35,742 bases of DNA from an uncultured Bacilli bacterium (GTDB lineage Bacteria > Bacillota_I > Bacilli_A > RF39 > UBA660), in assembly GCA_947625085.1 (NCBI GenBank), contig CANQMV010000004.1, forward strand, positions 1 through 35,742, given 5' to 3'. The number at the start of each line of letters is the position of its first letter. Positions within the stretch are counted from its first letter, which is position 1. A program made the position numbers and the translations under genes. Shown here one piece after another: positions 33,501 to 35,742 of this stretch. The notes under the pieces were generated by a model. The model worked only from the letters and a program-made list of their open reading frames with translations. It was not told the origin of the DNA and ran no database searches.

Positions 33501-33811
33501 TTGAAAATACTGAGACTTTCAAACGTTATACATTTGATTTAGGTTATATTGATAATGGACCTTATCAAGTTACTTTAGCAGTTCCTGATAATAAGGATAA
33601 AACTAGAGCTTGGTTTAAAAAGACTATAGATTTAAGTCAAGTTGAAAAAGGAAATTATGCTATTTATATAAAAACAACTTCTAATTCTAAAACTTATTAT
33701 GGCGAATTAATAGATATTGCTTATACGGATTTTAAAAATATAAATACAACTAAATATGAATTTAAGCGGATTGATGACCAACGTTTGCGATTGGAATTAA
33801 CTGTCAAATAA
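30572..33811 (+). CDS. Secreted GH73 endo-beta-N-acetylglucosaminidase (LytB-like) with Ig-like and tandem C-terminal domains
   Basis: Signal peptide ending VKA. NESA..S.IA..KNNLFGHSAYD..P and YASDPFWGEK motifs. APVITAS...DPLKDVTAYDAEDG Ig-like repeat. Confidence 0.88.
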   Translation: MKKFMVIFLSILFCFTVNVKALTSTEIKSRNVCGNLPIELATANSDKTLTHVDCYSDYKTAKAKMNATNNDNLVILERKSGVTKIIDAKMALVYLGVKSVNTNTTYYTSSSLSSSLTYANHHSTYGATDGVFLELNYSNYAIKVKSNGITGWLKNGDYIIVPLMFTGNYSFYQVTSTGLYHYYSKDIETTYTQTSRVLDKKPAQLTEGRYYSHDGIYFYKYASDMIKDYVNNTYQNAVNYNNPYYNYYMYLPHRARSNYSSDDIDAYLKNTKGFIGTIYGKKLVNKYSNMYQTGTYFKSSESLYGAYAIMMMSLATNESASGQSAIAISKNNLFGHSAYDSSPFASASGYLSPYYSILAHANNYINCGYANPNDYRYYGSHFGSKLSGMNVKYASDPFWGEKATNYYYQFDSQNGFLDYNYYQLGIINKANVSARTEPNQTSSIPYQFKTSEIPVIILEEVKNGDTLWYKIVSDANLNSSRTSILGCSNSNYYNWNSYVYVLASDITKINQTQNGKYNSNNDANVIKPTFTYQEYASASLYTPKSGLINKDTTVYDTATLNVSSNKVAKQGHLATVFMAALDENKKVVAYLITTDYSKNQRGWVKADDLTLNDKDILRVNLTKEGDTLPVYKTPGGSETGKIYTDTYSVIVDKMTYQSDLWLKIFYGLDNTYAWINTNISSSKGSLSYTTSKLNQAPVITASNRTIFVGDTFDPLKDVTAYDAEDGNITSKIKVIENNVNKDVVGAYLVTYQVTDSSNQTTTKSIQITVKNYALGKSLFIYEIIKEIKNDTFQFKGFLAVQGMNNTNLEHELIFENEKTLKTYTFKMEDYNDYPYEVTNTLDNKVYDYSDGWFKGDISLKNIPDGNYRIKVRTYNKTEGYYAEDYFTNIAYQEMPRRVQGERGYSFDIDYSYHGSPIVVAIRSDGLLSYEEPTSLDPMYNFFNELKLDGNKLTIDGTSHSVSVSYSKNDNVSRSLILENTETFKRYTFDLGYIDNGPYQVTLAVPDNKDKTRAWFKKTIDLSQVEKGNYAIYIKTTSNSKTYYGELIDIAYTDFKNINTTKYEFKRIDDQRLRLELTVK

Positions 33812-33814
33812 GAC

Positions 33815-33843
33815 TTGCAAAGAAACTAAAAATATTGTATTCT
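33815..33843 (+). promoter_or_regulatory. sigmaA promoter of module copy 1
   Basis: TTGCAA-17 bp-TATTCT, conserved in copy 2. Confidence 0.7.
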
Positions 33844-33867
33844 TAATATAAGAATAGGAGATTTGCT

Positions 33868-33945
33868 ATGGGAAATATATTAAATAATTATAAAAATTAT
33901 CAAGAAAAAGAAGTTGACAAATTGTCAACCATGGGGGGGGTATAG
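33868..33945 (+). CDS. 25-aa micro-ORF MGNILNNYKNYQEKEVDKLSTMGGV
   Basis: AGGAG RBS at 33856-33860, 7 nt before the ATG. Same length and C-terminus as copy 2. Confidence 0.7.
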   Translation: MGNILNNYKNYQEKEVDKLSTMGGV

Positions 33946-33991
33946 TACTTAATTTAAAGGATAACTATATTTTAAAATTAGACAAAATAAG

Positions 33992-34077: not shown

Positions 34078-34106
34078 AAAAATATAGATAATAAGTGAGG
34101 TAATTG

Positions 34107-35579
34107 ATGAAAACTAAAAAAGTAATAATATCTTTAATTATTCTAAGTCTTTTAAGTATTATTTATGTAAAGGTAACTAAAGGAATTAATTTTCAAAAAG
34201 AAATTGAAAAGGCAATTATAAGTAAGCAAGAAGTAAATGCTAACGAAGAAAACTATAAAGATGCAACTTTAAAAGGAGCAGACCCAGTTCTTTCAGGTAA
34301 GTTAATCCCTGTAACAATTGATAAAAAGGGAAAAGTAACTTATGCTAATACAAAAAAAGAATGGTATAACTATCAAAAGAAAGAGTGGGCTAATGCAGTA
34401 ATCTTAGTAGATAATCCAAGTTTAAAGTATAAAGTTGGAAGTGAAATAAAAGAAAGTGATATTGAAAGTTATTTTGTTTGGATACCAAGATATAGATATA
34501 AATTATGGAATGCCAATCAAGCAGATGGAGTTTATGATAAAAGTAAAATAACTGATGATGCAAATTCTTTAACTTCATATAGAATGCTGTTTGGAAATAC
34601 GAGACTAATAGAAATAGAATTTGAAGATAATAAAACACCTAAATCAGAAAATAAAGAAAATGGAGAGTGGCTAACCCATCCAGCCTTTACTTTGAATGGA
34701 AAAGAATTAAATGGAATTTGGGTTGGTAAATTTGAAACTGGTTATAATCAAGGGGATTCTGGAAAGCCAATTGAAGATACAACATCATGGTCACCTACTA
34801 AAGCTCGAGTTGATAAAGTAGAAAGTGATAAAATAATAGTAAAACCCAATGTTTATTCATGGCAAAATTCAACAGTTTCAAACTTCTTTAAAAGTGCATA
34901 TGAATATGAACGAGAGTTAGATAGTCATATGATGAAAAACATCGAATGGGGAGCCGTTGCTTATTTATCACATTCCTTATATGGAATAGGAAAAGAAGTA
35001 AATATAAATAATAATAATCAATATAAAACAGGATACTCAGCAGTAGTTGGAACTGATCAAAGTAATTATCCTGGAACAAGTGGAAATACAGAAAAAGAAA
35101 CTTTGCCATATAATACTCCAACCGGGTATCTTGCATCAACAACAGGAAATATTACAGGAGTCTATGATATGAGTGGAGGTTCAAGTGAATATATGGCTGC
35201 TTATAGAAATTTAGGAAATAATTGTGCTGCAGATGCAAATGGCATATTGAGAGGAGATTGCAGTGGTTTTGCATCTGATGAATTAACAAAATATGCTGCT
35301 TATTTGGATAAATATGAAAATTCAACTATGTCATCATATAGTAAAAGAATCTTTGGAGATGCAACCGGAGAGATGGGACCATTTTATCTATATTATGATA
35401 GTAGTTCTCAATATCATAATTCTTGGTATGCTGATTATTCGGATTTTATTGATATTGCAAATCCGTGGTTTACTCGTGGCGGTGCAAATTATAATGGATT
35501 ACTCAGTGGTCAGTTTGGATTCTACCGGAGTAGTGGTACTGTTTCTTCTGGTGCAACTCGTCTTGTTCTTGCAAGTTAA
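34107..35579 (+). CDS. Membrane-anchored surface protein with FGE-sulfatase/C-type-lectin-like domain, candidate DGR target
   Basis: N-terminal anchor. FVWIPRY, HPAF, GIWVGKFE, EWGAVAYLS.S.YG, GNITGVYDMSGGSSEY, PWFTRGG...G.F...G...RLVL at the C-terminus. Confidence 0.8.
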   Translation: MKTKKVIISLIILSLLSIIYVKVTKGINFQKEIEKAIISKQEVNANEENYKDATLKGADPVLSGKLIPVTIDKKGKVTYANTKKEWYNYQKKEWANAVILVDNPSLKYKVGSEIKESDIESYFVWIPRYRYKLWNANQADGVYDKSKITDDANSLTSYRMLFGNTRLIEIEFEDNKTPKSENKENGEWLTHPAFTLNGKELNGIWVGKFETGYNQGDSGKPIEDTTSWSPTKARVDKVESDKIIVKPNVYSWQNSTVSNFFKSAYEYERELDSHMMKNIEWGAVAYLSHSLYGIGKEVNINNNNQYKTGYSAVVGTDQSNYPGTSGNTEKETLPYNTPTGYLASTTGNITGVYDMSGGSSEYMAAYRNLGNNCAADANGILRGDCSGFASDELTKYAAYLDKYENSTMSSYSKRIFGDATGEMGPFYLYYDSSSQYHNSWYADYSDFIDIANPWFTRGGANYNGLLSGQFGFYRSSGTVSSGATRLVLAS

Positions 35580-35606
35580 AAATTGATACAAAAATATAAA
35601 ATAAAA

Positions 35607-35742
35607 ACTTGAAAAGAAAGTAAAAATATTGTATTATTAAATCAAGATAGGAGTCTTGATAATATGTTAAATGAGTTAGGTAATCATAAAAATTATAACA
35701 AAAAAGAAGTTGACAAATTGTCAACCATGGGGGGGGTATAGT
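35607..35742 (+). repeat. Copy 2 of the promoter/micro-ORF/palindrome/poly-G module (runs to window end)
   Basis: TTGAAA-17 bp-TATTAT (35609-35637), AGGAG, palindrome 35709-35725, G8 at 35729-35736. Confidence 0.95.
35664..35741 (+). CDS. 25-aa micro-ORF MLNELGNHKNYNKKEVDKLSTMGGV
   Basis: AGGAG at 35649-35653. Paralog of 33868-33945. Confidence 0.7.
   Translation: MLNELGNHKNYNKKEVDKLSTMGGV

Follow-up and report, generated by a model that had tools for sequence, protein, structure and literature searches.

What could have left the end of a surface-protein gene poor in adenine and comparatively rich in G+C in a genome that is otherwise rich in A? The question is raised by a gene at 34104..35579 on the + strand of a 35,742-nt stretch of DNA from an uncultured Bacilli bacterium (assembly GCA_947625085.1, contig CANQMV010000004.1), which was analyzed at its full length and is called the window here. 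The window is the entire contig C4 of a metagenome-assembled genome (MAG) of 1.19 Mb in 96 contigs that is 92.6% complete. The gene encodes a 491-aa membrane-anchored or secreted surface protein with a hydrophobic anchor at its N-terminus and is one of at least 8 paralogues. An earlier reading of the letters alone (hereafter the sequence-only reading) had proposed that its 3' end is the variable region (VR) of a diversity-generating retroelement (DGR), targeted in trans or formerly targeted. With a probability of about 0.72, we consider the last about 148 nt (35427-35574) to be a VR that was once written by a DGR and is now an archived, unrewritten copy.

The A-poor core flagged by the sequence-only reading, 35463..35573 (+ strand), contains 19 A, 21 C, 30 G, and 41 T over 111 nt, and our recount reproduced its figures of 51/111 G+C and 19/111 A, set against 37.6% A and 25.7% G+C in the whole genome. 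When a 111-nt frame was slid along the 35,742-nt contig, the A count reached its minimum (18) at 35462, marking the A-poorest 111-nt stretch of the contig, and frames with 19 or fewer A made up a fraction of only 8.4e-5, all at about 35461. We then held the amino acids fixed and redrew synonymous codons from the usage of the 549 long open reading frames (ORFs) of the genome. In 35463-35576, 20 A were observed against 28.4 +/- 2.7 expected (P = 0.002) and 52 G+C against 45.6 +/- 2.3 expected (P = 0.01), and two 114-nt control stretches upstream had normal A counts (P = 0.93 and 0.88). Amino-acid content accounts for most of the A depletion (from about 43 to 28 of 114), and the remainder (from 28 to 20) is due to codon choice; a composition arising purely from Gly/Ser/Arg content, which had been named among the findings that would speak against a DGR, is thus the larger part of the explanation, not the whole of it. 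The A-poor region uses codons that are rare in this genome, including CCG (4% of Pro), CGT (13%), CGG (4%), GGC (8.5%), CTC (0.4% of Leu), CAG (6%), TTC (9%), and TAC (8%), and codon-usage tables bear out the earlier remark that its scaffold residues sit on A-free codons, unlike the genome-wide preference for AGA (56%), TTA (70%), and GGA (47%). The 3' end of the gene was identified at least 8 times in the genome, on contigs C4, C44, C2, C7, C50, C88, C68, and C37, along with two 5' gene fragments on C28 and C62. The last ~120 nt had 40-54% G+C and 17-22% A in all 8 copies, compared with 30-39% G+C just upstream.

The 491-aa protein matched no Pfam family at E<=1, including FGE-sulfatase (PF03781), and no NCBIfam family. 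It nevertheless belongs to a large family, with 7,999 of 8,000 scored candidates at E<=0.001, and its C-terminal domain alone forms 3,091 clusters at 50% identity. None of the 120 relatives listed carried a Pfam domain, and where a name was given, it was "hypothetical protein." Its members occur in MAGs of uncultured Bacilli from the guts of rabbits, mice, and humans, and a single genome often has several of them. In an alignment of 30 sequences, the body of the protein was highly conserved, and only set positions in the PWF-x-RGG ... R-L-V-L segment at the C-terminus varied. We modeled aa 180-491 (34641..35576, + strand) with AlphaFold2 from 102 diverse relatives, obtaining a mean predicted local distance difference test (pLDDT) score of 94.7. 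The best Foldseek match of this domain was TaqVP (5vf4, E 1.8e-8), followed by Mtd, formylglycine-generating enzymes (FGEs), and TvpA; in its text, Handa et al. 2019 (PMC6328139) describe 5vf4 as the variable protein of a Thermus aquaticus prophage DGR. Alignment with VIA-align gave Z 17.4 for TaqVP (root-mean-square deviation 2.8 over 209 residues at 20% identity; model residues 9-312 against TaqVP 50-381), Z 10.3 for Mtd, Z 10.0 for TvpA (2y3c), and about 9-10 for FGEs, and 5vf4 was also the sole match by sequence in the PDB (E 0.005 and 0.084). The predicted structure thus upholds the lectin fold claimed from the letters and places the gene end in an FGE-type C-type-lectin domain, with the variable region at its C-terminal end. 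As part of the reading favored here, the block 35427-35574 would probably encode the ligand-binding face of that domain. A first model of the whole protein, built from 30 sequences, was discarded (pLDDT 51).

DGR cassettes were found behind this gene in relatives. A motif scan of 74 fetched related loci recovered 55 C-terminal gene ends, 4 of which are non-coding, Asn-rich second copies that follow the gene, that is, template repeats (TRs). A reverse transcriptase (RT) was present in exactly those 4 loci, downstream of the repeat. The differences between TR and VR were 16 A-type and 0 non-A over 150 nt in L063, 16 and 0 over 148 nt in L069, 9 and 0 over 158 nt in L089, and 9 and 0 over 90 nt in L056, where one G-to-C mismatch splits a longer repeat. 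A congener, G017, carries the full cassette on a single contig, with a 610-aa target gene and its VR, a TR that starts ~400 nt after the start of the VR, a 125-aa accessory gene, a 119-aa Avd-like gene, and a 341-aa RT, and its TR and VR differ at 11 adenines and at no other position over 151 nt. The order in the relatives is gene end, TR, accessory gene, Avd, and RT, and their cis copies have a G+C-rich hairpin in the spacer between VR and TR. These paired repeats indicate that the homologous gene end is demonstrably rewritten by a DGR in five relatives (G017, L056, L063, L069, and L089).

In 35427..35574 (+ strand), a stretch that opens with the WY-A-D codons and closes with R-L-V-L-A, the end of the window gene matches the TR and VR of these five relatives in a codon-by-codon alignment. 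The A-poor core noticed earlier lies inside this VR homologue, which begins at 35427 rather than at 35463. When the TR of G017, a template from another species, is taken as the reference, 16 mismatches in the window copy are A-type and 31 are non-A. Codon alignment of the copies within the genome revealed shared scaffold codons, often down to synonymous sites, and 11 of 38 codon columns that are hypervariable, with 4-7 different amino acids each. Across 7 copies (C44, nearly a duplicate of C4, was omitted), T or C is the last base of 46 of 48 codons in seven such columns, with the changes at codon positions 1 and 2, which agrees with the mostly NNT/NNC intervening codons seen by the sequence-only reading. 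Pairwise differences at codon positions 1/2/3 among 5 copies were 0.338/0.283/0.322 in the block and 0.194/0.172/0.303 in the preceding 45 codons. The G017 template has AAY codons (Y, pyrimidine) at columns 4, 8, 10, 11, 19, 21, 23, 28, and 30, of which 8 of 9 fall among the 11 hypervariable columns of 38 (hypergeometric P = 2.8e-5), and at the remaining three hypervariable columns (9, 24, and 29) the template has A at position 1 or 2. The mean pairwise difference among the copies was 0.487 at positions of G017 TR adenines and 0.241 elsewhere. Judged by this alignment, the tail of the window gene is a DGR-derived variable region by descent; it combines an A-free scaffold with NNY codons and would therefore be the residue of adenine-directed mutagenesis of a G017-like template.

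The favored explanation runs as follows. In this small-genome gut Bacilli lineage, one "master" copy of the gene would have a DGR immediately after it (TR, accessory gene, Avd, and RT, in that order), and this DGR would replace the end of that copy with cDNA carrying randomised template adenines. Duplicated copies elsewhere would retain whichever variant they carried and, being unrewritten, would drift toward A+T. The window gene would be one such archived copy, its A-poor and G+C-richer codons an inherited template scaffold and its NNY codons former AAY template codons.

Scans agreed with the earlier statement that the window has no TR, no RT, and no G+C-rich hairpin 3' of the gene's stop codon. 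An A-tolerant gapless scan of the 1.19-Mb assembly, with the whole block and both of its halves as queries, returned only the block itself and the C44 paralogue, the next best hits being poly-A noise with at least 17 non-A mismatches; in the positive control, the same scan led from the VR on contig C33 to its TR, with 17 A and 0 non-A mismatches. The assembly was also searched by low-stringency BLAST and by motif scans, which identified the 8 copies and no ninth. The genome-wide search for a copy differing almost only at its adenines, proposed by the sequence-only reading as a check, thus left the window block unmatched to any template in an assembly that is 92.6% complete. That reading had also said that a lack of TR and RT in the genome and in close relatives would count against it; the TR is unmatched here, and the relatives hold both TR and RT.

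A piece of the cognate RT gene was identified at C83:4687-5034, where exon 2 forms an intact 125-aa ORF that shares 66% identity with the RT of L056 and 59% with that of G017. The sequence in front of this exon, as far as the contig end, consists of domains V-VI of a group II intron (RF00029, 63.4 bits against a gathering score of 40). An identical (100%) 77-nt intron 3' end closes C84 before another, different DGR-type RT C-terminal piece. The two RF00029 intron 3' ends, at C83:5025-5102 (L091 1842-1916) and C84:4967-5043 (L016), are in sense orientation to the RT, and from the reading frames of the exons, both insertions apparently lie inside the YxDD codons. The 5' part of the intron and exon 1 of the C83 and C84 RT genes were not found in the MAG, and queries from G017 found no cognate Avd or accessory gene in the genome. 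The shortest contig of the MAG is 2,606 nt, and many contigs of the genome break within the surface-protein gene family. Plausibly, a ~2-kb segment between the multi-copy gene and the multi-copy intron was lost from the assembly, and we infer that the organism's cognate cassette escaped the MAG in this way, lying between repeats. No mention of intron-split DGR RT genes was seen in main-text passages of Wu et al. 2018 (PMC5758913), Handa et al. 2019, and Roux 2021, and word searches of the last for "paralog," "remnant," and "non-adenine" gave no match. Among the relatives, only domain-V similarity to the intron was seen, in 2 of 40. The one of these that was inspected, a related intron in congener G021, was rejected as an insertion in a DGR RT, being an ordinary intron elsewhere with its own maturase. 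The region downstream of the C84 RT fragment was rejected as a TR site, since it is the T-box leader of asnS (C84:4443-4646, L016; 115.6 bits), located directly after the fragment and upstream of this asparaginyl-tRNA synthetase gene.

Several observations bear on whether the window copy is live or frozen. Every pair of copies except C4 and C44 has 9-30 differences at positions without a template adenine, and therefore at most one version can fit any one template. C4 and C44 share a one-codon deletion and have A or T at third positions where the other copies keep C/T or G. These two copies differ at 6 of 148 nt in the block, 10 of 300 nt just before it, and 127 of 1,257 nt in the rest of the gene; the rates in the block and just before it show that the block is thus not hypervariable between C4 and C44. 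By stretch, they differ by 3-4% in the 3' 450 nt, ~10% in the rest of the gene, and 12% in the downstream joint, a pattern that suggests gene conversion between paralogues as the source of the similar 3' ends. Remote copies were also compared in three genomes that own a cis cassette, and all 9 examined carried 11-44 non-adenine mismatches to the TR, mostly C>T (loci L028 and L086 had no row at >=60% matched positions in this comparison). Taken together, the window copy is most likely frozen and no longer rewritten. Of the two possibilities offered by the sequence-only reading, a formerly targeted VR fits best, and a live trans target finds no support in the unmatched template, the non-adenine differences, the codon deletion, or the C4/C44 comparison, which has no excess variation in the block.

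Some points weigh against this conclusion. The organism's own cognate TR is unseen, and the template used for comparison comes from another species. The cognate RT exon 2 is intact, with the intron in sense orientation, and the RT is not obviously dead; with 92.6% completeness and a shortest contig of 2,606 nt, the MAG may simply have missed the cassette. In 5 of 8 copies, including the window copy, the codons of the 3' end motif, T-R-L-V-L-A, are nearly base-identical, and the motif could still act as a homing site. The read data, Logan contigs from four runs (X1-X4) of one rabbit-gut sample covering 35150-35742 at a depth of about 3, are without power; the alternative letters seen at 35435, 35437, 35457, 35490, 35561, and 35573 are those of the C44 paralogue.

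These same points form the case for a live trans target, in which an unassembled TR, together with the intron-split C83 RT or a third RT (C84), would still rewrite the window copy remotely. The intact exon 2, the kept end motif, and the ease with which a cassette with a multi-copy gene on one side and a multi-copy intron on the other could be lost from a MAG whose smallest contig is 2,606 nt all leave room for it, and remote targets are known for cellular DGRs from the text of Wu et al. 2018 (PMC5758913). We regard it as unlikely, however, since no more than 1 of 7 distinct versions can match a single TR, the codon deletion and the A/T third positions are beyond the reach of adenine mutagenesis, the block has no excess divergence from C44, the stop codon is followed by no hairpin, and all 9 remote copies have decayed in the 3 genomes with a cis cassette.

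The shared flanking joints, the many contig breaks inside the family, and the 3' 450 nt of C4 and C44, which differ by only 3-4% compared with 10% elsewhere in the gene, could alternatively point to cassette-type antigenic variation, that is, recombination or gene conversion among tandem paralogues with identical promoter joints while the retroelement is idle at present. Such exchange leaves unexplained both the changes at codon positions 1 and 2 with a fixed Y at position 3 and the match to template adenines, and we consider it improbable as the whole account. Least credible is the absence of any DGR history, with the composition set by a conserved lectin-fold C-terminus rich in Gly, Ser, Arg, and Thr and with paralogues that diverged by ordinary mutation and selection. 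The amino-acid content alone does cut the expected A from about 43 to 28 of 114, and third-position differences between copies are similar in the block (0.322) and upstream (0.303). Yet the residual codon bias (P = 0.002), the presence of very rare codons (CTC, CCG, CGG, and CAG), the match of the hypervariable columns to the template adenines of a congener (P = 2.8e-5), and the 5 relatives whose homologous block has a proven TR/VR pair make it very improbable.

Among known systems, TaqVP (Thermus aquaticus prophage DGR, PDB 5VF4) provides both the best structural match and the only PDB sequence match to the window protein. It is, however, a single-copy phage protein adjoining its TR and RT, whereas the window copy has no TR, and its product, a multi-copy surface protein of a cell, has a membrane anchor and an additional domain at the N-terminus. 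The DGR of Bordetella phage BPP-1 has the order mtd-avd-TR-brt. The cassettes of the relatives resemble it in having a target VR, a TR, an Avd-like gene, an RT, and adenine-only changes, together with the fold match to Mtd. Unlike in BPP-1, the TR of the relatives precedes an extra accessory gene, Avd, and RT, the element is cellular rather than of a phage, and in the genome of the window, a group II intron interrupts the cognate RT gene.

The TvpA system of Treponema denticola is closer in kind, being a cellular DGR with an FGE-type lectin-fold surface protein and scattered paralogous genes, and by this analogy the window's system would work like such cellular multi-target DGRs. As given in the text of Wu et al. 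2018 (PMC5758913), the seven remote targets of TvpA differ from the TR only at adenines. The remote copies here and in three relatives, unlike those of Treponema, carry 9-44 non-adenine differences, and under the criterion in that text of A-to-N changes only, the window copy does not count as a target. The same text describes "Category c" CLec1 (C-type-lectin) targets, whose VR is alignable to lectin-type VRs but which have no match to an Mtd or FGE-sulfatase domain. The window protein resembles these in having no Pfam FGE-sulfatase match and a variable region with an RGG...R-L-V layout, and it differs in that its fold was assigned by structure prediction.

The kind of DGR itself is already known; what is new here is a lectin-fold family with the status of a DGR target, most of whose copies are fossils. 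An unannotated family of >3,000 clusters at 50% identity without a Pfam model thereby gains a fold and a role as a DGR target family. Most copies of such a family can be fossils, and counting paralogues as "targets" would overstate the reach of a DGR. A purely compositional cue, here an A-poor and G+C-richer tail in a 26% G+C genome, can flag DGR-written DNA with no retroelement in view. The likely loss of a cassette between a multi-copy gene and a multi-copy intron also marks an assembly blind spot of MAGs.

We tentatively suggest, with more doubt than confidence, that variation in this organism could have two tiers, in which the DGR hypermutates a master lectin-headed copy and duplication "banks" the variants as fixed paralogues behind promoter joints. 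Under this scheme, G8 runs in the joints may serve as on/off switches, and a germline repertoire would be built from hypermutation. Diversification would also depend on intron splicing, with two DGR-type RTs split at YxDD by identical introns. The window copy would then be a banked variant or, less likely, a copy still rewritten by a hidden template.

The repeated intergenic joint occupies 35580..35742 (+ strand), and this unit lies upstream of all 5 paralogues that bear an N-terminus (C4, C44, C2, C7, and C62). It contains a promoter-like site at 35609-35637, a 15-nt palindrome at 35710-35724, and a G8 run at 35729-35736. The contig stops inside the joint, with a TATAGT hexamer at its end, and the last about 55 nt, with the palindrome, the G8 run, and TATAGT, recur on >25 contigs. 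The ~160-nt joint is also present at 33806-33946 of the window. As a spacer between VR and TR, 35580-35742 was rejected, having no alignment to the spacers of relatives and being the upstream promoter joint of the family.

Two of the other copies deserve mention. The copy at C7:5694-7138 shifts reading frame exactly at the start of the variable-region block, which may be either a frameshifted pseudogene or a sequencing error, and the gene next after it is prepilin-like. The C37 copy was considered as a TR and rejected, having only 3' sequence at the contig end followed by a hairpin and rpsP, and it is a gene end cut by the assembly.

The genome also has a complete, unrelated, and apparently active DGR of another lineage at C3:~39748-41700. 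It comprises a 366-aa RT with the TR downstream of it, a bAvd-like gene, and an accessory gene of 128 aa. The VR of this element (C33:11890-11995) forms the end of a different, 368-aa gene on C33, and 17 of 17 mismatches lie at template adenines. The TR on C3 (about 39748-39853) was rejected as the source of the window block, as it matches only the C33 gene, and the RT of this DGR is only ~29% identical to the RTs of the surface-protein family. The last 77 nt of C3 (41904-41980), just upstream of the cassette, are 98.7% identical, in the same orientation, to C33:12057-12133, which directly follows the target gene on C33, and the stretch before this repeat on C3 (L009 3115-3288) has 41% G+C and no Rfam match. 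Further, the giant proteins P0122, P0137, and P0217 (3,713-4,516 aa) each contain 5-9 stretches that match the lectin-fold domain.

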